A stretch of DNA of 47,244 nt from positions 1 to 47,244 of the forward strand of contig CAZXEF010000001.1 of the NCBI GenBank assembly GCA_964639605.1, read 5' to 3'. Of this stretch, positions 787 to 42,100 are shown in pieces. The position numbers were made by a program, and so were the translations under genes. The first letter of the stretch is position 1; each line of letters begins with the position of its first letter. Below the pieces are notes generated by a model. That model was not told the DNA's origin, did no database searches, and saw nothing but the letters and a program-made list of their open reading frames with translations. The stretch is from an uncultured bacterium (GTDB lineage Bacteria; Fermentibacterota; Fermentibacteria; Fermentibacterales; JCC-6).

Positions 787-1047
787 ATGTTTACCAAGAA
801 CGAAAATGGAAAGTGGGTCCCCACTGGGAAAGATGTTATGTTCCCATGGGAAGTTCCCCCACTGGATGGGTGGTATATCGTCTGTCTCAACCATTACGTC
901 AGGGATGGGAATAAGCGGATCTTTTGCGCGATGAGCCGAAATGGAGTACTGATAGAGGCGAGGGGGGACGACACCAAATCCGTGTTCTGGCGACTGGTCA
1001 ATCAGGCTGAAGTCTGGAATAAAGTGTGGAAGACCGGGAGGGAATAA
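787..1047 (+). CDS. hypothetical protein
   Basis: 86-aa ORF with a GGGAGGA RBS just upstream (aagggaggatgacATG), tightly packed in the operon. Confidence 0.6.
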   Translation: MFTKNENGKWVPTGKDVMFPWEVPPLDGWYIVCLNHYVRDGNKRIFCAMSRNGVLIEARGDDTKSVFWRLVNQAEVWNKVWKTGRE

Positions 1048-1049
1048 CT

Positions 1050-1289
1050 ATGTTTAGTGGGCAAGATTTCCTTAACGTATATGACGAAGATTCTATCGTT
1101 GATAAGTACAAAGTGGAGGATTTCAGAAAGCACCCGAACGTCATGTGTCTGGTAGATACTACTAGCACAAGCGGGGAAGGGATGTGGATACTAGACCAGT
1201 GGAAGGAATTTTTGACAAACAAGGGAGTACCGTGGGTACACGTAGCGACCCGAACCAAAAATATGTTATGGAAGAGGTTATTAGCATGA
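1050..1289 (+). CDS. hypothetical protein
   Basis: ATG at 1050 lies 3 nt after the upstream stop and has a gggaggg RBS. I trimmed the start of ORF 1026..1289 to it. Confidence 0.55.
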   Translation: MFSGQDFLNVYDEDSIVDKYKVEDFRKHPNVMCLVDTTSTSGEGMWILDQWKEFLTNKGVPWVHVATRTKNMLWKRLLA

Positions 1290-1936
1290 GCAAGGACCTA
1301 TATGAGACACTGGGGGTAGACAGGAAAGCTACCAAGGAGACTATTAAGGCAGCATACCGAAAGCGCGCGATGGACACGCATCCCGACCGTGGCGGGTCAG
1401 AGGATGAATTTGCGCTAGTGTCGAAGGCATACCGGGTTCTGAGCGACCCGAGCATGAGGGGGAGATATGACAAAGGGGAGCCAGTTGATGGCACTATCAG
1501 CAGGGAGAGCTTCCTTGAGCAAGAGGCAATGAATGTCTTGTTAGCTACTCTCAATGCCCTGATGAGTCAGTTTATTTCTAATCCAGACAGGTTTGACATT
1601 ATCGGGCAGGCCAAGAACGATATAATCGAGAAAAGGAGGAGATGCATTGACGATTCTGGAAAGGTCAGCAGAGACCTATCGAAGATCAAAAAGGCTATCA
1701 GTAAAGTCAAATACACTGGCAGCAGGATAAATGCTGTGGAAGTGATGGTAAATCGAAAGCTGGAAGCAGCAGAGAAAGTCCTCAGTGACTTGAAGGATCA
1801 GGAAGAAATTTTATTGCTGGCAAGGGATATAATCAAGGACTACAAATGGATCGGCGAAGGAAATAACTCGCTGGATTCATTTCTCGGGGCTGCAACATCC
1901 TCGGCTTGGAACGACTTTGCGGATGGAAGATGGTAG
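1286..1936 (+). CDS. J-domain (DnaJ-like) co-chaperone protein
   Basis: 'DLYETLGVDRKATKETIKAAYRKRAMDTHPDRGG..FALVSKAYRVLSDPSMRGRYD' is a canonical J domain with an HPD motif. The start ATG at 1286 overlaps the upstream stop. Confidence 0.85.
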   Translation: MSKDLYETLGVDRKATKETIKAAYRKRAMDTHPDRGGSEDEFALVSKAYRVLSDPSMRGRYDKGEPVDGTISRESFLEQEAMNVLLATLNALMSQFISNPDRFDIIGQAKNDIIEKRRRCIDDSGKVSRDLSKIKKAISKVKYTGSRINAVEVMVNRKLEAAEKVLSDLKDQEEILLLARDIIKDYKWIGEGNNSLDSFLGAATSSAWNDFADGRW

Positions 1937-4545
1937 GAAGGCCGTTAAATAAGAACTGCACTTTATGCAGGCTTAGCGAGACCAGAAACCTCGTGGTTGG
2001 GGGGCAAGGCCCTAAGAAATGTGCCATAATGATGATAGCCGAGGCCCCCGGCGAGTTTGAGGATAGACACGGGACCCCGTTCCATCCTTCGGCGGCGGGC
2101 GGGGCAGAACTTGATCACATCCTCAACATAAATTCTTGTCCGCGCGAGAATGTCTATCTCACGAATAGTATTAAATGCAGGCCTCCCGGAAACAGGAATC
2201 CGCGCAAGGACGAGATTGATGCTTGCTCAGCCTATCTGGACTATGAGATAGATAGAGTTGACCCGCAAATAATAGCCACTATCGGAGGTTTCAGCACGAG
2301 GCGGGTACTGGGCGACGTGGACATGGAGACTGTGCACGGCATTCCCTTCCAGAAAAATGGAAGAATAGTAGTTCCGCTATATCATGTGGCTGCAGGATTG
2401 CGCGACAACAAGACCATGCTCAACGTATATGCAGATTTTAAGAGTCTGTTCGGAATAATACGGCAGGAGCGCCCATCTCGGCATATAGAAGATCCGTTTG
2501 CGGGCAAGGAGAGATACATCCGATGCCGGACTGCGGGAGACGTGCTGAGCGCAGTGGGCAATAGGAGTACTATAGCGGTGGATGTTGAGTGGAATACCAA
2601 CAACAATGAGCTATGGTGTATAACTTTCTCTGTCGAGCCGGGAACTTCCAACATGATAATGAGGGAGGATACCGAGGCGATATGGGCGCTGGACATGTTC
2701 GTTTCTAGCCCCAATATTGTGTCCATTATACACAATACATTGTCAGACTTGGGGATACTGGAGTCTGTGGGGATTCATCCGGCGCGCCCCTTCGACACGA
2801 TGATAGTGGCGTACCTTCTGCAGAATGAGCCTCAGGGATTGAAACCCCTAGCTTTCAGGCACTGCGGAATGAAGATGGGATCGTATGCAGAAGCGGTCGC
2901 CCCGGCTACGTATTTCAAAGCAATAGACTACTTGCATAAGGTGGTAGAGCGGAAATGGCCCAAGCCGGACCCGGTTCTGGAGTTTGTTCAGGGGGTGCCA
3001 AAGAAGCGCCAGCCGCAGGATATAGGGCGCAAGACCAGTGGCATTCTGCGCGATATGGTTTCGCCCAAGAAAGGAGATATAGACCCTCGCAAGCGCTGGC
3101 TCAATTTCGATCCACGCGAGAGAAAGATGGTTGAGGATGAGCTGGGGGTGATGGAGGAAGGATTTCTCGGGGATATAGACCCGGAAGAGGCCAAAACTTA
3201 CGCCTGTTCCGATGCTGACGCTACTATCAGGATATACCCTATAATGAAGAGACGGATAGAAGCGGAGGAGATGGTCGGCACTTTCGAGCGCGACATGCGG
3301 GCTGTGCCCATGGTAGCGGACATGATGAAGTATGGAATCCTCACTAACCCGCAGCATTTTGTAGAGTTTGGCGCCTATCTGCAGTCCAAGGAAGACGAAC
3401 TGCAGTCTAGAATCAGCGCAGAGGCGGGATGGGATGTGAATCCGGGATCGCCCCTGCAGATGCAGAAACTGCTGTACGACCAACTGGATTTGCCGAGATA
3501 TAAGAAGACGGATACTGGCTGGAGCACGGACGAGAAAGTATTGGCGCGTCTGGCGGATAAGCACCCAATCGTGCAGATGGTTAGGGATTATCGATCCTAT
3601 AACAAGCTGAGAACCAGTTATGCCGAGGTTATACCCAAGGTAGTGGACAAGCACAACCGAGTTAGGTCCAATCTTCGCGTGACGCGGACGGATACAGGAC
3701 GATTGTCGTCCGGGGAACCAGTGAACTTGATGGCTCAGCCTGTCCGAAGCGAAGAGGGATTAAAGATAAAGCGCGGGTATATTGCATCGCCGGGGTGCCA
3801 CTTGGTGGAAATTGATTACAGTCAGGCAGACATGAGGTGCTGCGCTCACGGCAGCGGGGATGAAAGGATGCTTCATATCTTCAGGTCCGGACTGGATATC
3901 CATAGCCAGACCGCCTCGGCCATGTTCAAACTGCCGATTAATCAGCTTGACGAGATGAAACATCGATACCCGGCGAAAAGGGTCGGGTTCGGCGTGCTAA
4001 ACGACATCTCGGCCAAGGGATTGCAACGAGAGATGATAGTTGGCGGGGCAAAGGAGAAAGATTGGCCTCTGTGGCTGTGCCAAGACCTGATCAACAAGTG
4101 GTTTGAGACCTATTCCGGGGTAGCCCGGTTCGTTAACCGAACCCGCGCAGAGGCCCGTCGGTACGGTTATGTGACCGATATGTGGGGAAGAAGAAGGTAT
4201 ATTCCCGGCATACGATCTTCTAGCAGGAGTGCTGTAGCAGAGGCCGAGCGCCAAGCCACCAATGCCCCATTCCAGATGGGGACCGCCGGGATAACAAAGG
4301 AAGCTATGGGCCGACTCGTCCCGGTGTATAGAGGGTATATAGATGATGGATATGTCTGCTACCCACTAATCCAAGTACATGACTCGCTGCTATTTGAAAT
4401 TCAGGACGAGATACTGGATGAAGTGGTGCCGAGATTTATGGAGATAATGGAAGGAGTAGCCCCGTTTATGAAAGTTCCACTAAAGGTAGATGCTAAGATA
4501 GGACTAAATTGGGGGGAGACAGAAAAATGGAAATACGGAGGTTAA
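1930..4545 (+). CDS. Family-4 uracil-DNA glycosylase domain fused to family A DNA polymerase with 3'-5' exonuclease
   Basis: N-terminus: CxxC, 'AEAPGEFEDRHGTPF', 'KCRPPGNRNPRKDEIDAC' and 'YHVAAGLR', which are the UDG4 Fe-S type motifs. Exonuclease motifs: 'VDVEW', 'HNTLSDL', 'YACSDAD'. Polymerase motifs: A 'EIDYSQADMR', B 'RYPAKRVGFG', C 'QVHDS'. The start is taken at ATG 1930, overlapping the J-domain gene stop by 7 nt. Confidence 0.9.
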   Translation: MVGRPLNKNCTLCRLSETRNLVVGGQGPKKCAIMMIAEAPGEFEDRHGTPFHPSAAGGAELDHILNINSCPRENVYLTNSIKCRPPGNRNPRKDEIDACSAYLDYEIDRVDPQIIATIGGFSTRRVLGDVDMETVHGIPFQKNGRIVVPLYHVAAGLRDNKTMLNVYADFKSLFGIIRQERPSRHIEDPFAGKERYIRCRTAGDVLSAVGNRSTIAVDVEWNTNNNELWCITFSVEPGTSNMIMREDTEAIWALDMFVSSPNIVSIIHNTLSDLGILESVGIHPARPFDTMIVAYLLQNEPQGLKPLAFRHCGMKMGSYAEAVAPATYFKAIDYLHKVVERKWPKPDPVLEFVQGVPKKRQPQDIGRKTSGILRDMVSPKKGDIDPRKRWLNFDPRERKMVEDELGVMEEGFLGDIDPEEAKTYACSDADATIRIYPIMKRRIEAEEMVGTFERDMRAVPMVADMMKYGILTNPQHFVEFGAYLQSKEDELQSRISAEAGWDVNPGSPLQMQKLLYDQLDLPRYKKTDTGWSTDEKVLARLADKHPIVQMVRDYRSYNKLRTSYAEVIPKVVDKHNRVRSNLRVTRTDTGRLSSGEPVNLMAQPVRSEEGLKIKRGYIASPGCHLVEIDYSQADMRCCAHGSGDERMLHIFRSGLDIHSQTASAMFKLPINQLDEMKHRYPAKRVGFGVLNDISAKGLQREMIVGGAKEKDWPLWLCQDLINKWFETYSGVARFVNRTRAEARRYGYVTDMWGRRRYIPGIRSSSRSAVAEAERQATNAPFQMGTAGITKEAMGRLVPVYRGYIDDGYVCYPLIQVHDSLLFEIQDEILDEVVPRFMEIMEGVAPFMKVPLKVDAKIGLNWGETEKWKYGG

Positions 4546-4548
4546 TGC

Positions 4549-4746
4549 ATGGGATACACATTCACGTTTGGGAAGCACCGTGGAGAGGATATCGAGGATG
4601 TTCCCACTAGTTATCTTCAGTGGGTATCGGAAAACTTTGACGACAACGAGGATAACGAAGCTTTGCTGGAGGAGGTTGACGAGGAGATTGATCGCAGGGT
4701 AAGATGTGGTCTGGAACGAGACGAGAGACCGTGGTGGGAGAGATGA
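4549..4746 (+). CDS. small DUF3820-like protein
   Basis: 'FTFGKHRGEDIEDVPTSYLQWV' resembles the F-GKH+G..l.dvp..Yl.W motif. There is a GGAGG RBS. Confidence 0.55.
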   Translation: MGYTFTFGKHRGEDIEDVPTSYLQWVSENFDDNEDNEALLEEVDEEIDRRVRCGLERDERPWWER

Positions 4747-4747
4747 A

Positions 4748-4999
4748 ATGAAAATAAAATTTATAGAGAAGGTTATACAGAACCAAAATAGGCCGGGACG
4801 TTCCCCTTGGGAAAGCAAGGAGATGACGCCAAAGCAATTTGACTTTTTACTGGGCGAAGTACCTGTTGAACTGTTGGAGAAACTAGACAGGGGAGGGGCG
4901 TCGATATTGATAGGAGATATAATAGCGGCTAGGCAAGAGGCGTATGCCTATTCGTTCCCGGACATAGGCGAGAACTTTCTAGACGATGGTAGCATATGA
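4748..4999 (+). CDS. hypothetical protein
   Basis: ATG at 4748 is 1 nt after the upstream stop. I trimmed the start of ORF 4706..4999 to it. Confidence 0.55.
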   Translation: MKIKFIEKVIQNQNRPGRSPWESKEMTPKQFDFLLGEVPVELLEKLDRGGASILIGDIIAARQEAYAYSFPDIGENFLDDGSI

Positions 5000-5295
5000 G
5001 CAGAACTGGAGCAGACAAACTTGAGATGTATAGAGGGCACTTCGACGAGCTTAAGGCTAGATTCAAAAAGCTGGACGGAGCGCTGGACGTGTACTTCCGT
5101 ATTTGTCCCTCAGACATAAGCATGTTTCTGTATTTGAAGAATGCCGAGCTTAGGGAGAAATTTGAAAATATGGAGGTGGATCAGAGGGTTGACACTGGGT
5201 CCAAACGCAAAAGGAGGCCCGAGTTTGGCGAAGGGACTACTGACATAAAGGACACTCCGTTCAGCGTTTTGGGGGAGGAGGAAGATGAAAAATAG
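4996..5295 (+). CDS. hypothetical protein
   Basis: ATGA start/stop overlap at 4996. 99-aa charged protein. Confidence 0.55.
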   Translation: MSRTGADKLEMYRGHFDELKARFKKLDGALDVYFRICPSDISMFLYLKNAELREKFENMEVDQRVDTGSKRKRRPEFGEGTTDIKDTPFSVLGEEEDEK

Positions 5296-5467
5296 CGCCG
5301 ATATGCACACTGTGTCTGACGCTTTCGAGATAGGGGAAGAATTGGAGTTGAAGGGTAAGGTTTTTGTGCTGCATGCTATACGCAAAAAACAAATAGTATT
5401 GAAACTAGCCCCATTACATAGACAACCAAACAACAAGGAGGAGCATTTTGAGGATAGGCAAATTTAA
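5285..5467 (+). CDS. hypothetical protein
   Basis: 60-aa ORF with a GGGGAGGAGGA RBS. Confidence 0.45.
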   Translation: MKNSADMHTVSDAFEIGEELELKGKVFVLHAIRKKQIVLKLAPLHRQPNNKEEHFEDRQI

Positions 5468-7004
5468 CATAGTCTGTGGTGCTCAGGCAGGCTCAGAGGC
5501 AAAGGGAAAATTCGCTGCGTTCTTGGCGGAGAAATACAGTAAAGAAATTCAGGCTATTGTCATGGCGGGATCTCCGAACGCGGGTCATACTGTGGTGGTG
5601 GACGGAAAGAAAACAGTTACATACCACCTTCCGGTCAGCGCAGTCGGATGCGACGCCCCGATATACTTGGGTCCTTCATCGCTAATTAACGCCGGGCTTC
5701 TCAGGAAGGAAATAGTAGACACCGGGATAGACCTAGAGAGAATAACCATAGACCCGAGAGCCGCAGTAATAACCGATGTACTGATCCGAGATGAGGAGCG
5801 GGCCGGTTTGTCGGATATAGGGTCCACGCTTCAGGGGATCGGCTCGACGCGGATTCTGAAGATGAAGAGAGATGGAACTATAACGCTGGCGCGTGACTGC
5901 GAAGAGCTTATCGATATGGGAGTGGTATCAGTAGAGCCAGTATCATTCTTCATCAATGATCTCCTAGATTCCAGAGAGACCGTGTTGTGCGAGATGACGC
6001 AGGGATTCGACCTAGACCTAGAGCACGGCATCGATCCAAGATATTGCTTTGCTAGAGGAACTAGGATACTTTTGGAAAATGGTAACTCAGTTCCAATAGA
6101 GGAGCTAGTTAGAGATAGAATACCCGCATCGGTCCTGTCCTACAACAGTACCACAGGTTTGCTTGAACCCAAAAAAGTGATAAACTGGTATAAAACTCCA
6201 CACGGGGGTGACTGGTATAGAGTTCACACAGATCTAGCCGTTGGGGATAAATCAGCTCCTAAGTGCACGGGGGGTCACAAGTATTATACCCAAAGGGGAA
6301 AAGTTGAGGCAAAAGATCTGATGGTAGGCGATCTATTGTACACAAACGAATATAGTTTAGAGGGGACCAACTGCCTTGCTACAGTGCGATGTACCGGAGT
6401 TGAAAAGCTGGCTCGCCTAGTATACGGCGTAAAATACAATATAGAGGTTGAGGATAATCATAACTACTTTGCGGGAAATCAGTTTGGGTACACTCTTGTT
6501 GGTAACTGTACAAGCAAGATGATCAATCCAGCCATGGCTATGGCCGAGGCCGGGGTCTCGCCCAAAATGGTGGGACACATCTATGGTGTGCTTAGGCCGT
6601 ACCCGATCCGGGTCAATAACCGGACTGGAAGCAGCGGGCCATATGCTGACGCAATCGAGCTGAAGTGGGAGAACGTGGCGAAGGGCTGCGGGCACCCCGA
6701 CCCGGACAATTTCGGTGAGATAACGACCACAACGAAACTGCCGAGGCGGGTATTCTCCTTCTCGTGGGAGAGATATGCTCATTTTATTCGGGTAGCGCGC
6801 CCAGACTTACTGTGTATGCAGTTCGCGAACTACCTGAATTGGGATGATTGCGGGAAGACCAACTGGTTCGATATGTCTGGGGCAGTCAGGGCTTTCGTAG
6901 AGACGCTGGAGAAACACGGCGGATGGGCGAGAGTGGCTTATGTCGGGACAGGGCCAGAGCACAAAGAGATGATTGATATGCGAGTGGACAGGGCAATTCT
7001 CTAA
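5448..7004 (+). CDS. purZ: Adenylosuccinate-synthetase family enzyme, PurZ-like, interrupted by an intein
   Basis: TTG start with an AAGGAGGAG RBS. The P-loop reads 'GAQAGSEAKGK' versus GDEGKGK in PurA, so Ser replaces the catalytic Asp. 'SPNAGHT' matches NAGHT, and 'QGFDLDLEHGIDPRY|..|CTSK' matches QG..LD.DHGTYPYVTS. The spliced length is about 364 aa. The family call is strong (~0.9). The PurZ versus PurA call is inference (~0.6). Confidence 0.65.
   Translation: MRIGKFNIVCGAQAGSEAKGKFAAFLAEKYSKEIQAIVMAGSPNAGHTVVVDGKKTVTYHLPVSAVGCDAPIYLGPSSLINAGLLRKEIVDTGIDLERITIDPRAAVITDVLIRDEERAGLSDIGSTLQGIGSTRILKMKRDGTITLARDCEELIDMGVVSVEPVSFFINDLLDSRETVLCEMTQGFDLDLEHGIDPRYCFARGTRILLENGNSVPIEELVRDRIPASVLSYNSTTGLLEPKKVINWYKTPHGGDWYRVHTDLAVGDKSAPKCTGGHKYYTQRGKVEAKDLMVGDLLYTNEYSLEGTNCLATVRCTGVEKLARLVYGVKYNIEVEDNHNYFAGNQFGYTLVGNCTSKMINPAMAMAEAGVSPKMVGHIYGVLRPYPIRVNNRTGSSGPYADAIELKWENVAKGCGHPDPDNFGEITTTTKLPRRVFSFSWERYAHFIRVARPDLLCMQFANYLNWDDCGKTNWFDMSGAVRAFVETLEKHGGWARVAYVGTGPEHKEMIDMRVDRAIL
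6045..6506 (+). mobile_element. Class-1 mini-intein (154 aa, no homing endonuclease domain) inside the PurZ-like gene
   Basis: Block A is 'CFARGTRILLENGNSVPIEELV', block B 'CTGGHKYYT', block F 'YNIEVEDNHNYFAG', and block G 'TLVGN' followed by the +1 Cys. Removing it restores the conserved 'HGIDPRY-CTSKMINPA' core of the PurA family. Confidence 0.85.
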
Positions 7005-7010
7005 GGGGGA

Positions 7011-7039
7011 TTGGCAAGGAGCGCCCGACGTGGTATAAT
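7011..7039 (+). promoter_or_regulatory. sigma70-type promoter with extended -10
   Basis: TTGGCA (7011-7016), a 17-nt spacer, then TGgTATAAT (TATAAT at 7034-7039). It sits in the gap after the PurZ-like stop. Confidence 0.6.
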
Positions 7040-7145
7040 GAAATTTTGGTGGGGGGCGGTCCCCTGCCTTGCCTTGGGTGAAGGCAGCATTCCCGGACTG
7101 AGTGGCGGGAGTGCTGCCCAAATTATGACAATAGGGAGGAAACGA

Positions 7146-7928
7146 ATGGAGGATAAACTAGTAGCCGACCCCAGTAACATCGGCATGGGAGTAACTGTAT
7201 ACAATAGATATCTGTTTGCCGTTCCTGTCAAGGGGATAATAACTAATACAAACGATGCTCTAAGCTGTTATCAGGTAATTTTTTGGACAGATAATCCCGG
7301 AGGAAAGAATGTCAATAAGCACGATGGAGAATACTTCTTCGTCAGAGAATGTATTGTCGGCAGAGATCTCCGTGGAGCAGGGGCAACTGAGTATATAGAG
7401 AAAAGAATGAAGAAGCTGGTGGGTATATGGAAAGCCAAAGGGCTGAACGGACTACAAGCCGAGCGCTGGATTACAAAAGAACCTGATAAGACTAAGGAAG
7501 CAATGATGGTCAGGGTAGAGTGCGGAGCTTGTGGCTGGGCGATTGAGCGGCCAGTAGAGGAACACGCAAATCATCCGTTTATAGCATGCCCGTCCTGTGG
7601 GAACTCTGATATCAAGGAAACATTTCGTGCGGACAAAGAGTGGGATAGCCACGAACGGGACAGTCTTCAATCACTGCGTCCATACCGGTTCGATCTGATC
7701 GACCCCAAGGCTATGCTATGTCTGGCGGGTATCATGCACGACGGATTAAAGGACCATGAACCTGATGGCTGGCGGGAACTTCCGATAGAGGATCACCTCA
7801 ATCACGCCGTGGGCCACATAACAGCCTACCGGGCCGGGAACCGGGAGCTTGACCACTTGGGCAGGGCCTTTGCCCGGTTGATGATGGCTGTGGCCGAGGA
7901 GAAGGAAGATGGGACGGAAAATGGATAA
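7146..7928 (+). CDS. Two-domain protein: Zn-ribbon-containing N-domain plus DUF5664 / dATP-dGTP diphosphohydrolase-like (MazZ-like) C-domain
   Basis: ATG 7146 has an AGGGAGGA RBS. 'CGACGW..(21)..CPSCGN' looks like a zinc ribbon. The C-terminus 'RPYRFDLIDPKAMLCLAGIMHDGLKDHEPDGWRELP..HLNHAVGHITAYRAGN..LDHLGRAFARLMM' fits the PR(F/W)DLIP...A..RH..A...G...HL pattern I recall for that family. Confidence 0.55.
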   Translation: MEDKLVADPSNIGMGVTVYNRYLFAVPVKGIITNTNDALSCYQVIFWTDNPGGKNVNKHDGEYFFVRECIVGRDLRGAGATEYIEKRMKKLVGIWKAKGLNGLQAERWITKEPDKTKEAMMVRVECGACGWAIERPVEEHANHPFIACPSCGNSDIKETFRADKEWDSHERDSLQSLRPYRFDLIDPKAMLCLAGIMHDGLKDHEPDGWRELPIEDHLNHAVGHITAYRAGNRELDHLGRAFARLMMAVAEEKEDGTENG

Positions 7929-8860: not shown

Positions 8861-9748
8861 ATGAAATGTTTTTATCACTCAGCGGACTTGGACGGTCATT
8901 GTTCTGGAGCAATAATTAAAATGGCATTTCCTGAATGCGATATGATAGGGATCAATTATGGAGACGAATTTCCATGGGACGATATAGGGCCTGATGAATT
9001 AATCTTTATGGTTGATTTTTCCATTCAACCTTTTGAAGGAATGTTGAGGTTAAATCAATCCTGTGGAACGTTGATCTGGATAGATCACCACATATCAGCG
9101 ATTAAAGAATCTGAAGTTTACGGAAATAAATTCTATGGATTACAAAGGGATGGTATAGGAGCCTGTGCCTTAACATGGGAATATACATGGGAATATCTTA
9201 AATCCCTGGGGCATTTTTACACTGAAGATTTTCAAAATATTTCATCCGAAAGTGATCTCCCCACTTTTATAAAGCTTCTCGCTGAGTATGACGTGTGGAA
9301 CCATTCCGACCCAAGAACTCTTTCGTTCCAATACGGGATGAGACAGCAGCCCAATACATGGCCGGATAATCAGGATTTTTGGAACTCCTTATTTGATGTG
9401 GAAGAGGTCCAGAGAATTACCGAAATTGGCGGAACAATACTAAAATATCAATTAGCCGAAAATGAAAAATACTGTTCTGCCTGCGCCTTCGAAACAGAGC
9501 TGGATGGTCTGAAATGTATCGCAATCAATAAGATGCTCACCAACTCGCAGCTATTTAATTCTGTTTGGGACAGCCAAAAATATGATGCCATGCTTACTTT
9601 TGGGTGGCGTAAGGGAAAATGGACAGTATCCCTATATTCCGACAGGGATGATATTGATGTTTCGTCAGTGGCGAAGAAACATGGTGGGGGTGGGCATAAG
9701 GGGGCAGCCGGGTTTCAGTGCGAGTATTTACCATTCAATCTGACTTAG
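8861..9748 (+). CDS. DHH/DHHA1-family phosphoesterase (NrnA/RecJ-like fold)
   Basis: Motifs 'HSADLDGHCS', 'MVDFS', 'WIDHHIS' and the C-terminal 'HGGGGHKGAAGF'. The gene is visibly more AT-rich than its neighbours. Confidence 0.8.
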   Translation: MKCFYHSADLDGHCSGAIIKMAFPECDMIGINYGDEFPWDDIGPDELIFMVDFSIQPFEGMLRLNQSCGTLIWIDHHISAIKESEVYGNKFYGLQRDGIGACALTWEYTWEYLKSLGHFYTEDFQNISSESDLPTFIKLLAEYDVWNHSDPRTLSFQYGMRQQPNTWPDNQDFWNSLFDVEEVQRITEIGGTILKYQLAENEKYCSACAFETELDGLKCIAINKMLTNSQLFNSVWDSQKYDAMLTFGWRKGKWTVSLYSDRDDIDVSSVAKKHGGGGHKGAAGFQCEYLPFNLT

Positions 9749-34885: not shown

Positions 34886-36136
34886 ATGACTAGAGCTATA
34901 ACGGATAATCCAGAACGGATGGGGACTGAGGCAGCTCCGGGAGTTCCGTGGGAAATTGCCAAAAATACTGATGGCCCCGGAATTGACTGGGACCCAAGTA
35001 TGTTGCACAGTAGAGTATCACCGGAGACTCTTGACGAGTTTGCGAGAGTAGACCCTGAAAATGCCGACGCTATAATGGATAGCTACGGCTATAGTAGTAA
35101 GGACGTGCCAAGAAACCCAGAGAAACCCCGACCGACGCAAGCTCCAGCAGCATCCCAACCCGTGCGTGCTGGGCTTAAGCCCCCGGTGGATACTTCCAAA
35201 GCGCCAGACTATTCTGCTTCGGGGAGGGACAGGTTTGCTGTGGCTATAAAGCAACAAATAGGATTCGACCCAGTGAGACTGGACCCGTACAAGGAAGTAC
35301 AGAAAGCGGAGGCCAGAATGCTGCCAAAGATATTTAATCAATTCTTCGGCGGCAAAGTAATGTGGCAGGACAGGGAGCGCCTAAATGCCCAGCAAAAAAA
35401 GGCTTGGGAAGAGGAGCACCTGAAATTTCGCTCCCACGTATTCAACAGAGCAGAACAGCTTAAGGAAAACGGAATAGCGATAATGAGAGAGGGATTAGAC
35501 AGCTTCGACAGAAAGGCGAAGGAGTACTCCGACATAATGTCAAAGGTTGAGAAGCAGATCGAGGCAGACCGAAAGGCCAGAGAAACTGCGCCTCAGATGA
35601 TTGGTATAGTTCCTCTGGGGAAAAATCAGAAGACAGTCCACGTATGGGATAGAGCGACTGGAACTTATGTCGACACTGGACGCCCTTGGTCTGATACCTC
35701 TACCCCACAGATAATTCAGCAGATGGACTTCGAGGACAAGATACTTGGAAATTATGAACCGAACCAGAAGTTAGACCCGGTTGATCTGCAGGCTATGAAC
35801 GATAGACGCGTCACAAGGGGGATGCCAAATATCGTCGAGGTTCAGGTCAAGGCCCCCATCAAAAGGTCCCGATTCGGGATTGACTGGTTGGCCAAGGACG
35901 AAAAGGGAGAATATCAGTACCTCGAAGAAGGTTCGCCAGAACTTGAGCAGGCCCTAGCGGAGGGCGGAACGCGAACTGACAGTATCAGGGAAGATGTTGG
36001 TGGAAGCGCCGAGGCTTCTCCAACCGGGTCTTCTGCCCAAATTTTAGAGCAGTTTCCGACGGCGTACCAAGCCACGGACGGGAAGTGGTATTACACGGAT
36101 GATAATGGTCAAACCTATCGAATAGAGGAAGAATAA
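34886..36136 (+). CDS. virion-associated protein (internal-protein-like by position)
   Basis: 416 aa, tightly coupled to both neighbours. Confidence 0.5.
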   Translation: MTRAITDNPERMGTEAAPGVPWEIAKNTDGPGIDWDPSMLHSRVSPETLDEFARVDPENADAIMDSYGYSSKDVPRNPEKPRPTQAPAASQPVRAGLKPPVDTSKAPDYSASGRDRFAVAIKQQIGFDPVRLDPYKEVQKAEARMLPKIFNQFFGGKVMWQDRERLNAQQKKAWEEEHLKFRSHVFNRAEQLKENGIAIMREGLDSFDRKAKEYSDIMSKVEKQIEADRKARETAPQMIGIVPLGKNQKTVHVWDRATGTYVDTGRPWSDTSTPQIIQQMDFEDKILGNYEPNQKLDPVDLQAMNDRRVTRGMPNIVEVQVKAPIKRSRFGIDWLAKDEKGEYQYLEEGSPELEQALAEGGTRTDSIREDVGGSAEASPTGSSAQILEQFPTAYQATDGKWYYTDDNGQTYRIEEE

Positions 36137-39100
36137 TGTCTCCTTTTAAAGCTATACCAGTAGATAGCGCGCCCGAACCGGCGTTCGACCCTGAAGGTGA
36201 CGGGTACGACTATATTACTGCCAGAGAGGCTGGCCTCGGCCAAGACGGATCCGGGCACTGGCCCAGCCTAGACCCGAGGACGGGAATGGTCCTAAAAGGA
36301 ACAGGCCACCCTACGTATAAAGAGACTGTTGACGCTGAATCGGAACTGGGAAATACTATCTCCAAGAAAGGGAACAGGTACTACTCAGCCAAGTCCTCCG
36401 GGAAGTTTAAGCTAACCCCGGTGGATAAGGCTCCTGAACCTGTACAAGCTGCGGCCCCAGCACAGAGTGCAGTACCCCCCTCAAAGGAGCAGCCATCTTT
36501 CAATGTAGCCCCGGAGCGCACCTTCGCGGATAAAGTAAAGGACATGTTATTCCGGGAAGGGAAAGACAAACTTACGGCTAAAGCACAGAATGCTATGGCG
36601 ATAGCCAAGGAGTTCGGAGTAAGACCGTCCGAGGCGTACACCAATCAGGAGCAGATATCTAAAGAAGTTGGCTTTAAGGACAACCCGAATACATCACAGC
36701 TTTTGGCCGGGCCAGTAGTAGCTTTTTTCATGGCGAATCCAGTCGGGGCTACCCTAGGATTAGCCACGTATACCGCACTTGGAGAAGTAGAGAATGCAGT
36801 AGCTACAGGGATAAAGGGAGATAAATACAAGTTCGGGAAATACTCAACTCCATCGCAGTGGCTGCCAGAAGATACCAGCGAAGGAGTTAAAGCTATCCTT
36901 GACGGGGCAGACATGCTGGTAAAGGGCGGGCTGATATCCAAAGGAAAAAATATCCCGGAAAACATAAGGGAGAAATTTCTAAGGGAGACTATAACTGAAT
37001 ACAATCTACCGAAAACAATCAGCATAAGTCCAAAGCAGGTTAAGGATGCCCTGTCCTTGGACCCCTCACTGCTTACCCCAGAGGAGCTGGATGCTCTCAA
37101 AGCGCTTTCCGGAAAGAAAGGAGAGTGGGCTAGGGCGGCTCGCGAGGGTATCCGCATTGATATACCAGCCGAGAAGATAGTCAGGGTAGCCGACAAGCCA
37201 TGGTGGAAAAAGGTAAAGAGCAAGCTCGGCTTGAAGGCCGGAAGAGAATATACCGTCACTCACAGGGCGGGAGAGACCACAACTGGAAGGCCCGTGGCTG
37301 GACTACTGAGAGACCCCAGAGAAGTTCCTACCCGAGCTGGCCGATCAAATGATATAGAGCCGGAGGTTCCCGGATTCGAGGGAGCAGTAGAGGAAGCGGA
37401 GAATGCTGAGAGAATTATAAATATTCGGAGAGGGCGGTCCACTGTGGAGGAGTCCCCGTACGATACCGGGGCAATAGAGTATCCGAAGAAGGCTGGCAGA
37501 GGGATATTCCCGATCGCAAGAAAGGCCCCACCAGATATTCCATCGGGCAGATCCACAATTGAGGAGTCCCCGTACGAGACAGGAACTGTCAAATACCCAG
37601 AGAAAACCGGGGGCGGAATACCGCCTACGACCAGACCTACTATACGCAAGCCGCCACCTTCGCTGCCTCAGCGTCAGACTTCGGTTGAGGAGTCTCCGTA
37701 CAAGACTGGAACTATTGCTCCTCGCCCCAGAAGGACAGCAGGAATTGTACCGCGCAACCCAAATAGGCCTCCACCCCCAACTATCCCGCAAAGGAGGTCC
37801 ACTATCGAGGACACCCCATATATACCAGCGGCGATACGCAGACCGGGAGGAATACCAATAGCGACGAAAGCTCCGTCCGATGCGCCCACTGCTAAATTTC
37901 TCGGGTACCATGATCTTACCTCGATCGGCGAGGGGCAGTCTCCTCTGTACAATATCGAGGGCGGTGAGCATCATGGGTCTACTGTCACCAAGGCCAGACT
38001 GGAGCAACTGGGAATACCAGTACCTGAGACTCCTCCGCCTGCCAAGCCCGAAGAGGATTTCGTCACGCAGTCAGGAAAGCCGTACAAGCGCAGAGGAAAT
38101 CTGGAAAATGCCCTGAAGAAAGCCGGGAAGGAAGACCAGTACGACATACTTAAGCTCCGCGATGGATATGTCGGGCGCACAAAATTGTCTAAGGGAGGGG
38201 GAATATCCCCGACGAATTACCGCACTGTAGTGTCAGATACCACTACGGAGGGAAAGAAGGGAAATATATGGATACTTACCGATGAGGGGGTACGCTATGA
38301 AAGCGCCCAGCCAATGCACTTCATGATCGCCGAGGAATTCAATATCCCGTATAGCAGTGTGGTAGAGAGTGGCATTATCGGTGGATCATCTACCAACTTG
38401 AGGAAAATGCAGGAGCTACTGTCGAAGCTATCCAAAGGGGGTTATGTCGGGGATGTGAACAACCGCGCCCTGAACTCGATACCCCCCAAGCAGCAGGGCA
38501 GGATACTTAGGCTGGTGTCTGAGATACCCAAATGGATGAAGGAGGCTGGAGCCGATCAGGAATTGATGGACCGGGTTGATGTCGAGCTTAAATCCATAGT
38601 GGAAGTTCCGGAAGAGGGCGTGGACGAGAGCATTCAGCAGTGGTCGCAGCTTGGCAAGCAGATGGAGAGAGTGCTTGGGGCCACGACATTCGATCCGACG
38701 GGCCTCTTCGCCATAATGCAGTTGTCACTGGATCAGGGAACTGGGCGCTTGAAAAAGACTACCGTCCACGAGACATACCATTTGATGAAAGCGTGGATGC
38801 TGCCCCGCGCAGAGAGTGAGCGCGTTTCCAAATTCTATGGTGACAATGAAGAAGCCGAGGCAGACGACTATTTTGACTTCCTTGAGGGCAGGAAGAAAGA
38901 ACGACCGGACTGGCTTACAAGGATATTCAACAAATTGAAGGCATTGTTGGAGCGAGTATGGAACTGGGCCAGAGGGAAGGGATTCACATCCAGCGCCGAT
39001 GTCAAGGTTGTATGGGAGAGTCTCCGCAGCGGGGTATGGAGGACGCGACCGATTGGGGTAACTAGAAATCCAACTACCTCATTTGCCGGGGAACAGACTC

Positions 39101-42100
39101 CGGTGCAGTGGGGATTTAGCCAACTAGCGAAAGTAGCCGCCGATCCATCTATGCCTACCAAAGCTCAGTCCGTGCCAAATTGGTTGTTAAAGCAAGGGGT
39201 GAAACCCGCCGAGATGAAATGGATGGGAGTTGAGCAATGGCTGTCTGATAATCAGACCAAGCAGGGCAAGATCGACCGGCAGGCTTTCGCAGAATGGGTT
39301 AATTCCAATAAAGTCCAAGTTAGCGAAGTATTTAAGGAGGGAGAAGGAGGGGACGAAGAAGTTGCAATGGAGATAGCAAATGAAGTAACCTCTCTTATAT
39401 ATAACTCTGACTACAGGCTGGGAATCCTAATGGAGGAAGGAGTGTTGCACGAAGAATTTCTATCTGATATAGAAATGACCACTATAAGAAATATTGTGGA
39501 TGGTTGGGGAAATTATTCTTCCGCTGAGCAGGTTCGACAGGAATTGATGAGTGCCATATCTCAAATCCCTGAGGACGTTATCGCTGGTCTGGACCCAGAT
39601 GTTGTCCCAGAAGTTACTGCTGCGATAAAAGGGATAAGGAATGATGGATTGCCAGCTATAGATGAGGAAGTGCTCCCTGAAGAATTAATGCCCGGCGATA
39701 CGCAGTATAAGGAATATGTTCTTCCCGGAGGTGAGGATTATGGAGAATTGCTGCTGACACTCCCCGCAACCAATGCCCCATACACTATGATTGGTACGTA
39801 TGAGCAAGTTCCTGCCGGGCCAAATTTTCAGTCTGATCACTGGGAAGAGCCAAACGTCTTAGCGCACACCCGTTTCAATTCCAGAGCGGATACGGAAGGA
39901 AACAGTGTGCTATTTCTTGAGGAAGTACAGAGCGACTGGCTGCAAACAGCAAAGGAGACTGGAATGGTTAGCAGTGAAGACGCCCGGTTGTTGGAAGAGT
40001 ACGAGGCCAAGAAGAAACCCTTAGAGGAAGAGTATAACGAATTGTTGGCGCATGCTGGAGGCGTTGAGGGGGCTAAATCTGCGCTGCCAAGTGCTCCTTT
40101 CCTTGACACTTGGCACGAGCTAACTCTCAAGAGAATGTTGCGTTGGGCCGCTGAGAGGGGATATGACAGACTGGCGTGGACGACCGGAATACAGCAGGTG
40201 GATCGCTGGTCAAAGGCGACGAGACGGGTCGTGGATAGTATCAGTTGGCAGAACGTAAGCAATGATAATCTCAGTGTTGAGAGGCTGTCCGATAACCACT
40301 ATGCAGTATTCAACAATAGAACAGGACAATTTGTTGAAGGAACCGATGGGTCATATAGGGCGCCGGTGCAGGATATAGCTGATAAATTAATGAATGACAG
40401 CGCTGGGAATGGGTATGCTACTATAACTGGACACAAAGATGGGAAGGTAGTGTTCAGCGAAGTTATACCGTTACAGGGTTCTACCAAGATACATAACCAA
40501 GAGGTTACACTTCAAGATCTTGTAGGGAAGCAGCTTGCCGATCGCATTCGGTCTGGGGAGAGCCGGGGTAGCGTGGAGGGGGAAGGCCTAACCATTGGCG
40601 GCGAGGGTATGAAAACTTTCTACGACCAACGCCTCCCCGGATTCGCCGAAAAATATGGCAAGCAATGGGGAGCGAAGACCGGGAAACTGGAAATATGGGA
40701 GGGCAGAGTAGACCAGAAACAAGTAACCCCCGACAATATCGATAGAATAGCCGTGAATAAGGCAAAGGTTCATTATATTGAAATTACTGATGCGATGCGC
40801 GAGTCTGTTCTCCACAAGGGTCAGACGCTTTTCTCCATCGACTCTGCTGCCAAAACTGGCCGCGCGGAGAAGGTCAAAGCCCGCGTCGAGGCGTACAAGA
40901 AGCAGTTCTATACCCCGATAGAGGGTTCTCCGCTGGACAAAAGCGCCATAGCATATCTCAAGGAGAAGGACCCGGCCAATATCAAGGTATACTTCGACAA
41001 TATGCCTACCATTGGCGAGTTGCTTCCGTCCGAGGTGTACAGGTTCGACGAGAAGGCCAAGCAGTACATTGCCACTATTACCACGGAAGCTGGAAATATC
41101 AAGCCCGCCATACGCCAGAGTGGATATTTTGTTCTAGACAAGTTTAAGGACACAATTTCCGCATACACCGATATCAGCAAGCGCGTGGAAATGTGGACGG
41201 ACCCGACCCGGATGATGCAGGCCATTGACCAAGGCCATTTCGGGGGTCCGGTCCAGTCTCATGTCCTGTGGCCAGCTCGCTCCACAATGATGGCGAAGCT
41301 CAAATGGGTGGATTATCAAAAATCTCAGGTAGCCGATATACTGGACAAGCACAAAATCCGGACCCGCAAGAAAGACGAGGCCGTCACAGCAGTGCTAGAG
41401 CATGTTAGCCAGAGCAAGGCCTTCGGAAAGAAGGTCGACGACATACTTAGCATGAAGGGGGTAAAAGAGGCGCTGGTAAAAATCAAGCCCAAGGACCACA
41501 GGGATATTGTCGAGGCCGCGATCGAGGCTAGGGTTCTATATACCCGGATGCGGGCCAATGTCAACACTGCACGTCGGTTGAGGAAACAGAAGGAAATCCC
41601 GCGCAGGGCATTCTACTCCCCGGACATACTTGCGCAGAATGCGTGGGCCAAACTTTATGGCTCCATGCACAATATCCATTTGGTGATGGAGCGGCCAGAG
41701 ATGCCGGACTTTATACAGCCGAACCAACCCTTCAACCCAAGAGCGCTGCCCAAGGAAGGAGGAATCCCGGACTATATGAAGGAGCGCAGACTGTCTGTTC
41801 TGATGGCCGATTATGCAGATACGTCCGGGAGGGATATATTCGACACTAATATAATCCACAACAATAAAATATATAGCGCGGTTATGAAAAGCGTCGGACT
41901 TGATCACTCCGCAGATGCGATAAATACGTGGACCAGTGAGGTGTTCGCCGGAACTAGCCCGGCCATAACCAAGGTTGCCAAGAGAGTCCTTCCGGAGAAG
42001 GTTCACGGAGGACTACTATCGCTGCGCAGAAATCTGTCTAGGGCAGTTTTTCCGCTGAACTTCACGTGGAATATGTTCATTCAGACATCCTCCGCTGGAA

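Follow-up and report, generated by a model that had tools for sequence, protein, structure and literature searches.

The stretch of DNA analysed here (the window) is 47,244 nucleotides long and corresponds to positions 1 to 47,244 of the forward strand of contig CAZXEF010000001.1 (GenBank assembly GCA_964639605.1), which is assigned to an uncultured bacterium of the Fermentibacterota. It contains a purZ gene that is interrupted by a segment with the signature of a mini-intein. The purZ open reading frame (ORF) spans positions 5448–7004, encodes 518 amino acids, and, like all the purZ features described below, is located on the plus strand. It begins with a TTG start codon, 6 nucleotides downstream of the Shine-Dalgarno-like sequence AAGGAGG (5435–5441), and the position of the start is consistent with the N-termini of homologues, which have the pattern M-R-x-G-K-F-N-I. 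The encoded protein can be divided into an N-extein, the insert, and a C-extein. The N-extein (residues 1–199, positions 5448–6044), delimited by Pfam, by alignment to the PurZ of phage phiVC8 (PDB: 6FM1) and by alignments of homologues, contains the P-loop QAGSEAKGK, the NAGHT motif, and the GFDLDLEHG loop, and ends with LEHGIDPRY. The C-extein (residues 354–518 and the stop codon, positions 6507–7004), delimited by the phiVC8 PurZ and homologue alignments, begins with CTSKMINPAM, includes the segment TTTTKLPRRVF, and ends with GTGPEH.

The exteins together resemble PurZ, a member of the adenylosuccinate synthetase (AdSS) family. The match of the protein to the Pfam profile Adenylsucc_synt (PF00709) improves from an E-value of 3.9e-26 with the insert to 8e-32 once the insert is removed. 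In a phmmer comparison to sequences from the Protein Data Bank (PDB), residues 7–199 and 353–506 of the window protein match residues 25–220 and 220–354 of phiVC8 PurZ, which are contiguous (E-value 1.3e-26), and the PurZ of cyanophage S-2L (PDB: 7ODX) is matched with an E-value of 4.9e-26. The matches to archaeal PurA (7e-20), PurZ0 (PDB: 7VF6; 4e-13), and bacterial PurA (about 1e-11) are weaker; 7VF6 is the PurZ0 of Gordonia phage Archimedes (PMC12884076). The position of Asp13 of PurA is occupied by serine in the window protein (QAGSEAKGK, compared to QFGSTGKG and QYGSTGKG in PurZ and QWGDEGKG in Escherichia coli PurA), and the same serine is S14 in phiVC8 and S23 in S-2L. This substitution has been used as a marker to identify phages with 2-aminoadenine (Z) in their DNA (bioRxiv 10.1101/2025.10.22.683976; PMC8342488). 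The PurZ proteins of phiVC8 and S-2L also share with the window protein the Y|CT[SA] loop and the TT.TK..RR motif, but both are intein-free and have 34–35% sequence identity to the spliced window protein. The identification of the host protein as PurZ-like, already made in the initial annotation of the window, is supported by PurZ proteins being its best relatives among the solved structures, by the serine at the Asp13 position, and by the adjacent gene for a DUF5664 protein. The residues common to PurZ and PurA are all retained in the exteins (NAGHT, T127, R141, Q185, the RR motif, and the threonine that follows the junction), and the spliced enzyme therefore looks functional as judged from its conserved residues.

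The insert (154 amino acids, 462 nucleotides, positions 6045–6506) separates Tyr199 from Cys354, and its excision restores the sequence HGIDPRY|CTSKMINPA. The initial annotation had described a 154-residue insert that begins with cysteine, ends with LVGN, and is followed by another cysteine, and these coordinates are exact to the base. Its proposal that excision re-forms a conserved loop holds column for column in the alignments to intein-free homologues, to the PurZ of phiVC8 and S-2L, and to the YPY|VTS segment of E. coli PurA. In the solved PurZ proteins, the junction sequences are YPY|CTS (phiVC8) and YPY|CTA (S-2L), with no interruption. In the DHGTYPY|VTSS loop of E. coli PurA, the equivalent junction has Tyr237 on one side and Val238-Thr239 on the other, with the numbering checked on the K-12 sequence. 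Thr239 of E. coli PurA binds the 5′-phosphate of inosine monophosphate, and Gln224, located 14 residues upstream, contacts the base. Because the junction adjoins the equivalent of Thr239, the intein is positioned within the nucleotide-substrate pocket. The cysteine that follows the insert is native to PurZ, since a contiguous x-C-T-[SA]-[KR] motif occurs in 105 of the 120 best homologues, including intein-free ones. The degenerate DNA of the empty site at the junction is GAYCCNMGNTAY|TGYACNAGY. Alignment of the two junction regions revealed no meaningful flanking direct repeats, in keeping with an intein.

Among 5.8 billion proteins searched, 278 relatives were identified, and the best 120 of these, including the window protein itself (P0001), were used to count inserts. 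The gene product is uninterrupted and about 360 residues long (median 363) in 116 of the 120, and the remaining four, P0001 to P0004, are longer. In an alignment of ten sequences, six homologues of about 360 residues are continuous across RY|CTSKM, and the four long ones have their insert at exactly that column. The segment is thus sporadic and not a conserved domain of the family. The short homologue P0005 has 73% sequence identity to the window protein in the best local alignment (70% in the alignment of ten) and is encoded on contig L003 (61 kb), where the genes follow one another as in the window: DnaJ, a polymerase with uracil-DNA glycosylase (UDG), exonuclease and PolA domains, small ORFs, purZ, and the DUF5664 gene. 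This contig is a syntenic empty-site relative of the window. The insert is absent from all 27 close purZ loci in IMG/VR, where the matches are all about 1.05 kb long. The spliced protein has matches in 217 records of the GenBank phage collection, at a single place in each and with no split, and the 60 records that were sampled across the full ranking all align contiguously over the site. The intein alone matches 25 GenBank phage records, in features annotated as helicase, DNA polymerase, RNA ligase or hypothetical protein or left unannotated, and none of these is purZ.

Motifs and predicted fold of the insert

The insert contains the sequence blocks that are characteristic of inteins, and the strings CFARGTRILLENG, KCTGGH, YNIEVEDNHNYFAG and LVGN|C are all found in it, which confirms the TGGH block and the block F described in the initial annotation. 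The N-terminal nucleophile is Cys1 (Cys200 of the precursor, positions 6045–6047), and cysteine is present in 146 of 146 aligned members of the intein clade. Block B is formed by T75-G-G-H78 within KCTGGH (6267–6278). Its Thr75 (B:7, codon 6267–6269) and His78 (B:10, codon 6276–6278), the roles of which have been reviewed (PMC4031507), are conserved in 164 and 178 of 180 clade members, respectively. Block F has the sequence Y131-N-I-E-V-E-D-N-H139-N-Y-F142 (6435–6470), and histidine occupies the His139 column in 112 of 122 clade members. Block G, L-V-G153-N154 (6495–6506), ends with the cyclising residue Asn154 (Asn353 of the precursor, 6504–6506). It is followed by Cys+1 (Cys354 of the precursor, 6507–6509), which is the first residue of the C-extein, belongs to the CTS motif, and would act as the second nucleophile. 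The residues C1, T75, H78, H139, N154 and C+1 correspond to the clade consensus. A six-frame scan using a hidden Markov model of the clade detected only one Hint domain in the window.

The nucleophiles of the insert, Cys1, Cys+1 and the terminal asparagine, together with the threonine and histidine of block B, are those of inteins in class 1. Members of class 2 have Ala1, members of class 3 have cysteine at position F:4, and BIL domains lack the terminal asparagine and the +1 nucleophile (PMC4031507). The assignment to class 2 (KlbA type) was rejected because residue 1 is cysteine and not alanine, and the assignment to class 3, where the cysteine at F:4 is the obligate nucleophile and an N-terminal cysteine or serine is usually lacking, because F:4 is asparagine and not cysteine, and Cys1 is present. 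A BIL or pretoxin-HINT type, which cleaves instead of splicing and occurs in secreted proteins or toxins, was rejected because Cys+1 is present, the host protein is a cytoplasmic enzyme of nucleotide metabolism, and the relatives of the insert carry homing endonucleases.

Profile searches place the insert among inteins. A phmmer search with the 155-residue segment against 1.84 billion representative proteins produced 1282 matches with E-values of 1e-3 or lower, 125 of which have E-values of 1e-10 or lower. The ten nearest matches outside PurZ all contain Intein_splicing or PT-HINT domains in a Pfam scan. Nine of the ten are located in other enzymes (family A DNA polymerases, a T4-type portal protein, RecA, SNF2 helicases, RNA ligases, and a subtilase), and in six of these nine a LAGLIDADG_2 domain lies between the intein halves. 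In a plain phmmer search of PDB sequences, the insert segment separately matches the mini-intein from Spirulina platensis DnaX (Spl DnaX) with an E-value of 1.4e-4. A clade profile was built from 28 mini-inteins, with the window copy first. Compared to the PDB, it matches 53 distinct chains, which are inteins and a few intein-like BIL domains, with E-values of 1.8e-26 for Spl DnaX, 5.8e-20 for NrdJ-1, 7e-19 for Npu DnaB, and about 1e-18 for the RecA intein of Mycobacterium tuberculosis (Mtu RecA). The comparison to intein profiles suggested in the initial annotation thus returned known inteins as the best matches. The isolated segment passes the Pfam PT-HINT cut-off (29.1 bits, cut-off 27.7).

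The structure of the insert was predicted using AlphaFold2 with the same 28-sequence alignment, with a predicted local distance difference test score (pLDDT) of 93.9 and a predicted template modelling score (pTM) of 0.88. The best match of the model in a Foldseek search of the PDB is the Mtu RecA intein (PDB: 2IMZ; E-value 2.6e-9, template modelling (TM) scores 0.80/0.86, root-mean-square deviation 2.3–2.5 Å), followed by DnaX, DnaE, DnaB and other inteins. There are 59 PDB matches with E-values of 1e-3 or lower, and the best 50 of the 59 comprise inteins, intein-like BIL domains and Hedgehog Hint domains; their TM scores reach 0.80/0.88. The identification of the insert as an intein with the HINT fold is supported by the sequence profile and by the predicted structure.

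Two known mini-inteins are close counterparts of the insert. The Spl DnaX mini-intein (PDB: 7CFV), which is of class 1 and about 140 residues long, is the best profile match and, with TM scores of 0.75/0.84 to the model, also among the top structural matches. Its block F, YDIEVE.NHNF, has the same architecture as that of the window intein, whereas its host is a clamp-loader subunit, and it has aspartate at F:4 and ends with LLVHN in place of the asparagine at F:4 and LVGN of the window intein. The Mtu RecA mini-intein (PDB: 2IMZ, 2IN8) is the best fold match and uses the same class 1 chemistry with Cys1 and Cys+1, but is inserted in RecA and has 24–27% sequence identity to the window intein. 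The Mtu RecA intein has aspartate (D422) at F:4 and a penultimate histidine.

Same-site inteins and the loss of the endonuclease

Inteins at the same site are present in three metagenomic purZ alleles: P0002 (JGI), P0003 (Logan SRR24907504), and P0004 (ENA ERZ27257504). The three are unannotated database proteins, and we found no paper describing them. All share the insertion point of the window intein (RY, TY or HY|CFARGT...N|CTSKM), asparagine at F:4, and a penultimate glycine or serine, and their inteins are 59–66% identical to that of the window over the first 105 residues and 80–85% identical over the last approximately 40. P0003 (710 residues, L001:195-2327) and P0004 (715 residues) differ from the window copy in that their inteins retain a LAGLIDADG_2 domain of about 200 residues. 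The element is therefore not unique to the window, and at least six other metagenomic protein clusters of the AdSS family have an intein at this site. When the PurZ-intein alignment was used to search JGI metagenome contigs, IMG/VR and GTDB genomes, the inteins detected were all distant ones in other genes, with sequence identity of 45% or less, and none was in an AdSS gene.

The insert has no endonuclease domain, in agreement with the initial annotation, and its description there as a mini-intein is reinforced by the LAGLIDADG domains of P0003 and P0004. Because same-site purZ relatives carry a LAGLIDADG endonuclease, the window copy is an endonuclease-deleted derivative. The comparison to P0004, which has the sequence EGTN-[203 residues with LAGLIDADG_2]-CPATVEC at this point, places the deletion scar approximately between Asn109 and Cys110 of the window intein (EGTN|CLATV, positions 6366–6377). 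The deletion boundary in P0002 is different (EPDI|GSRPAQ), which indicates that the endonuclease was deleted twice independently.

In P0003 and P0004, the conserved aspartate is missing from both LAGLIDADG motifs (LLGGG or LLGKG, and YQDRG). The nearest endonucleases thus seem to be decaying and, as judged from these motifs, are probably inactive. The conserved aspartates are kept in the motifs LLGDG and YQDDG of P0213, P0235, P0152 and P0121. P0213, P0235 and P0152 are far more divergent proteins of the AdSS family, and this very site is occupied by a LAGLIDADG intein in each of them. P0152, a metagenomic representative of 742 residues, has a PurA-type P-loop (GDEGKG) with aspartate rather than serine, and therefore the site is used outside PurZ proper as well. 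P0121 contains the intein most similar to that of the window outside PurZ (45% sequence identity) and is a UDG-exonuclease-PolA polymerase encoded on IMG/VR contigs of 37–70 kb (L114–L116). Its intein resembles that of the window in having block F KYNIEVEDNHNYF with asparagine at F:4 and a penultimate residue other than histidine (LVKN|C). It differs in its host gene and in retaining a LAGLIDADG domain with the aspartate in both motifs. In L114, the polymerase gene with the intein (871–4467) is directly followed by an intein-free purZ homologue (4680–5735). From one purZ phage to another, therefore, related inteins are inserted in different replication-module genes.

The inteins of P0002 and P0003 are 97–100% identical, whereas their exteins are 52–64% identical, which suggests recent lateral transfer between divergent purZ alleles. 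The splicing blocks are invariant across the four alleles, although these have diverged to 59–68% identity. The G+C content at third codon positions (GC3) is lower in the intein than in the exteins in all three loci compared (0.41 and 0.605 in the window, 0.557 and 0.68, and 0.40 and 0.60). The nonsynonymous divergence (dN) of the intein, 0.23–0.29, is lower than that of the exteins, 0.44–0.47, in the same pairs; synonymous divergence is saturated between intein alleles, so that the comparison of dN alone is usable.

Splicing competence and alternative explanations

The element is very probably an active class 1 mini-intein in a phage purZ gene, positioned between Tyr199 and the native cysteine of the Y-C-T-S loop, which, judging by its sequence, would need to splice before PurZ can work. 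Several observations weigh against this interpretation. Splicing itself is a prediction from sequence. The segment scores 29.2 bits with the Pfam profile Intein_splicing (PF14890), which is under the gathering cut-off of 35.8, and the single-sequence AlphaFold2 model is uninformative (pLDDT 32.8), so that a good model needs the alignment of relatives. Two assisting residues are not canonical: F:4 is Asn132 (6438–6440) and not the usual aspartate, and the penultimate residue (G:6) is Gly153 (6501–6503) and not histidine. Together, they could make splicing slow or prone to side cleavage. The replacement of the penultimate histidine had been recognised in the initial annotation, but that of the aspartate at F:4 had been missed. 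Furthermore, no DatZ-like HD protein, DUF550 or MazG match was found among the window ORFs scanned, and the clearing of nucleotide pools may therefore rely on other enzymes.

The residues at F:4 are most commonly aspartate, followed by cysteine and tryptophan; the aspartate has been implicated in the activation of Cys+1, and inteins without histidine at G:6 are known (PMC4031507). In the clade of the window intein, the F:4 column contains 72 aspartates, 44 asparagines and 5 cysteines. A penultimate residue other than histidine (serine, glycine or lysine) accompanies asparagine at F:4 in 32 of 34 inteins, and aspartate in 35 of 72 (Fisher p = 3e-6, uncorrected for phylogeny). The pairing with asparagine also occurs in endonuclease-bearing inteins of the clade, such as P0121, P0123 and P0127, and in copies in PolA and SNF2 genes. 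Because of the 32 of 34 cases, which include endonuclease-bearing inteins, the pairing seems to be an alternative set of assisting residues that functions in this sub-lineage and not a sign of decay, as far as can be judged from the sequences.

These substitutions bear on the alternative that the insert is a decayed intein that does not splice, a dead HINT remnant that would leave purZ as a pseudogene or yield cleaved fragments, with Z synthesis lost or supplied otherwise. In its favour, F:4 is asparagine and the penultimate residue is glycine, the endonuclease is gone from the window copy, and the LAGLIDADG motifs of P0003 and P0004 without their conserved aspartates imply an element at a decaying stage of its homing cycle. 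However, the ORF is open, block B is intact and none of the three nucleophiles is lost, the same pairing of asparagine with a residue other than histidine is present in 32 clade inteins, among them LAGLIDADG-bearing copies in PolA and SNF2 genes, and the extein residues conserved in PurZ and PurA are all kept. The dN of the splicing domain below that of the exteins and the unchanged splicing blocks of the four divergent alleles also speak against a dead remnant. We consider decay distinctly unlikely.

It is even less probable, to the point of being hard to credit, that the insert is an accessory domain retained in PurZ without excision, or a Hint domain of BIL or pretoxin-HINT type that cleaves and does not splice. 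PT-HINT is the best Pfam match that passes its cut-off, and Intein_splicing remains under its own; nevertheless, true inteins rank first in both the profile and the fold searches. The segment is not present in 116 of the 120 closest homologues, in any of the 27 IMG/VR loci, or in the PurZ and PurZ0 genes of GenBank phages (217 records with one match place each, and 60 sampled alignments, all contiguous), and it breaks a loop in contact with the nucleotide substrate. The terminal asparagine and Cys+1 of the insert are missing in BIL domains (PMC4031507), and relatives at the same site carry homing endonucleases. The third alternative, a chimeric contig in which the assembly placed the intein of another gene into purZ, as the GC3 of the insert below that of its flanks might suggest, is almost certainly wrong because three data sets that are independent of one another (Logan SRR24907504, ENA ERZ27257504, and the JGI protein) have the same architecture, the drop in GC3 is repeated in those loci, and in the window the reading frame runs through unbroken, with a codon-exact junction on either side.

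The proposed splicing of an active intein would proceed by the standard steps of class 1. In the translated precursor, which has a computed mass of 57.2 kDa, the 17-kDa HINT domain would keep one half of the nucleotide-binding pocket apart from the other. An N–S acyl shift at Cys1 (Cys200), helped by Thr75 and His78, would be followed by the attack of Cys+1 (Cys354) on the thioester, and this trans-thioesterification would produce a branched intermediate. The cyclisation of Asn154 would then free the intein, and an S–N shift would form a normal peptide bond within the sequence DPRY-CTSKM of the 40-kDa PurZ. The computed masses of the spliced PurZ (40.0 kDa) and of the intein (17.2 kDa) agree with the products of approximately 40 and 17 kDa estimated in the initial annotation. 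Because the insert parts Tyr199 from the Cys-Thr-Ser that lines the substrate site, the precursor should be inactive, and splicing would be required for PurZ activity and, with it, for any synthesis of Z. The element is best explained as the descendant of a homing intein that carried a LAGLIDADG endonuclease and invaded this purZ site, with the endonuclease later deleted in the lineage of the window. After the deletion, the intein would persist only through clean splicing from an enzyme that the phage needs. Splicing could also be conditional, either redox-dependent through the Cys1 and Cys+1 pair or slow owing to Asn at F:4 and Gly at G:6, and serve as a timer or switch for PurZ activity and the onset of synthesis of dZTP, the triphosphate of the Z deoxynucleoside; we regard this as a speculative and rather unlikely extension.

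Gene neighbourhood and implications for Z phages

The gene for a DNA polymerase with UDG-like, 3′–5′ exonuclease and family A polymerase domains, as identified by Pfam, is located upstream of purZ (1906–4545, plus strand) and is intein-free in the window. The UDG-like domain is similar to family 4 uracil-DNA glycosylases, and the three-domain fusion is kept in the relatives L003 and L114. The TTG start of the polymerase gene overlaps the 3′ end of an ORF with a DnaJ domain (1184–1936). The four small ORFs at 4549–5467 and the other ORFs scanned yielded no free-standing homing endonuclease that might mobilise the mini-intein.

Directly 3′ of purZ is an ORF (7011–7928, plus strand) with a DUF5664 / dGTP_diPhyd_N domain at residues 224–299 (Pfam PF18909, E-value 3.9e-10), and a DUF5664 gene also follows purZ in L001 and L003. 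The domain is an accessory in the control of nucleotide pools for Z-DNA, and a DUF5664 protein of Z phages hydrolyses dATP, dUTP and dGTP to deoxynucleoside monophosphates (PMC12884076). The ORF encodes 305 residues, and its long N-terminal part contains a CxxC...CxxC pattern and has no family match; the DUF5664 neighbours in the relatives are only 120–163 residues long. The real start may be further 3′, at the ATG at 7147 after GGGAGG, or the protein may be a fusion. A DHH/DHHA1 phosphoesterase gene (8861–9748, plus strand; PHROG 4771, E-value 1.5e-39) is located about 1.9 kb 3′ of purZ, and the structural half of the window includes an ORF of 2359 residues (36136–43215, plus strand). The phage is likely to have a Z genome, although none of the ORFs scanned gave a DatZ-like HD protein.

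Inteins favour enzymes of nucleotide metabolism and replication, and in particular their nucleotide-binding loops. The presence of an intein in purZ is therefore not a conceptual surprise and does not overturn current understanding. The initial annotation knew of no intein in PurZ or PurA, and we likewise found no report of one in the searched literature that combines PurZ, adenylosuccinate or diaminopurine with inteins, nor an example in GenBank phage records. In term searches, a giant-virus paper that mentions both 'intein' and 'adenylosuccinate' does not link the two, and 'PurA' is absent from the main text of a large intein survey (PMC4760082). The element thus seems to be of an ordinary kind in a host protein without an apparent earlier report.

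The finding adds a new host family, PurZ / adenylosuccinate synthetase, and a new insertion site to those of inteins, and the site fits the bias towards nucleotide-binding loops. Stages of the homing cycle can be seen at this one site: intact LAGLIDADG motifs, motifs without their aspartates, and two independent deletions of the domain. The clade offers a natural set of inteins with asparagine at F:4 and a penultimate residue other than histidine, and the compact 154-residue intein with Cys1 and Cys+1 is a candidate tool intein. Surveys of PurZ by length or annotation may mis-handle genes that bear inteins. If the phages encoding P0213, P0235 and P0152 have Z-DNA, their endonucleases would need to recognise and cut 2-aminoadenine-substituted DNA in order to home. 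If splicing is needed for PurZ activity, some phages would produce the enzyme of the first committed step in 2-aminoadenine synthesis as a precursor without activity.

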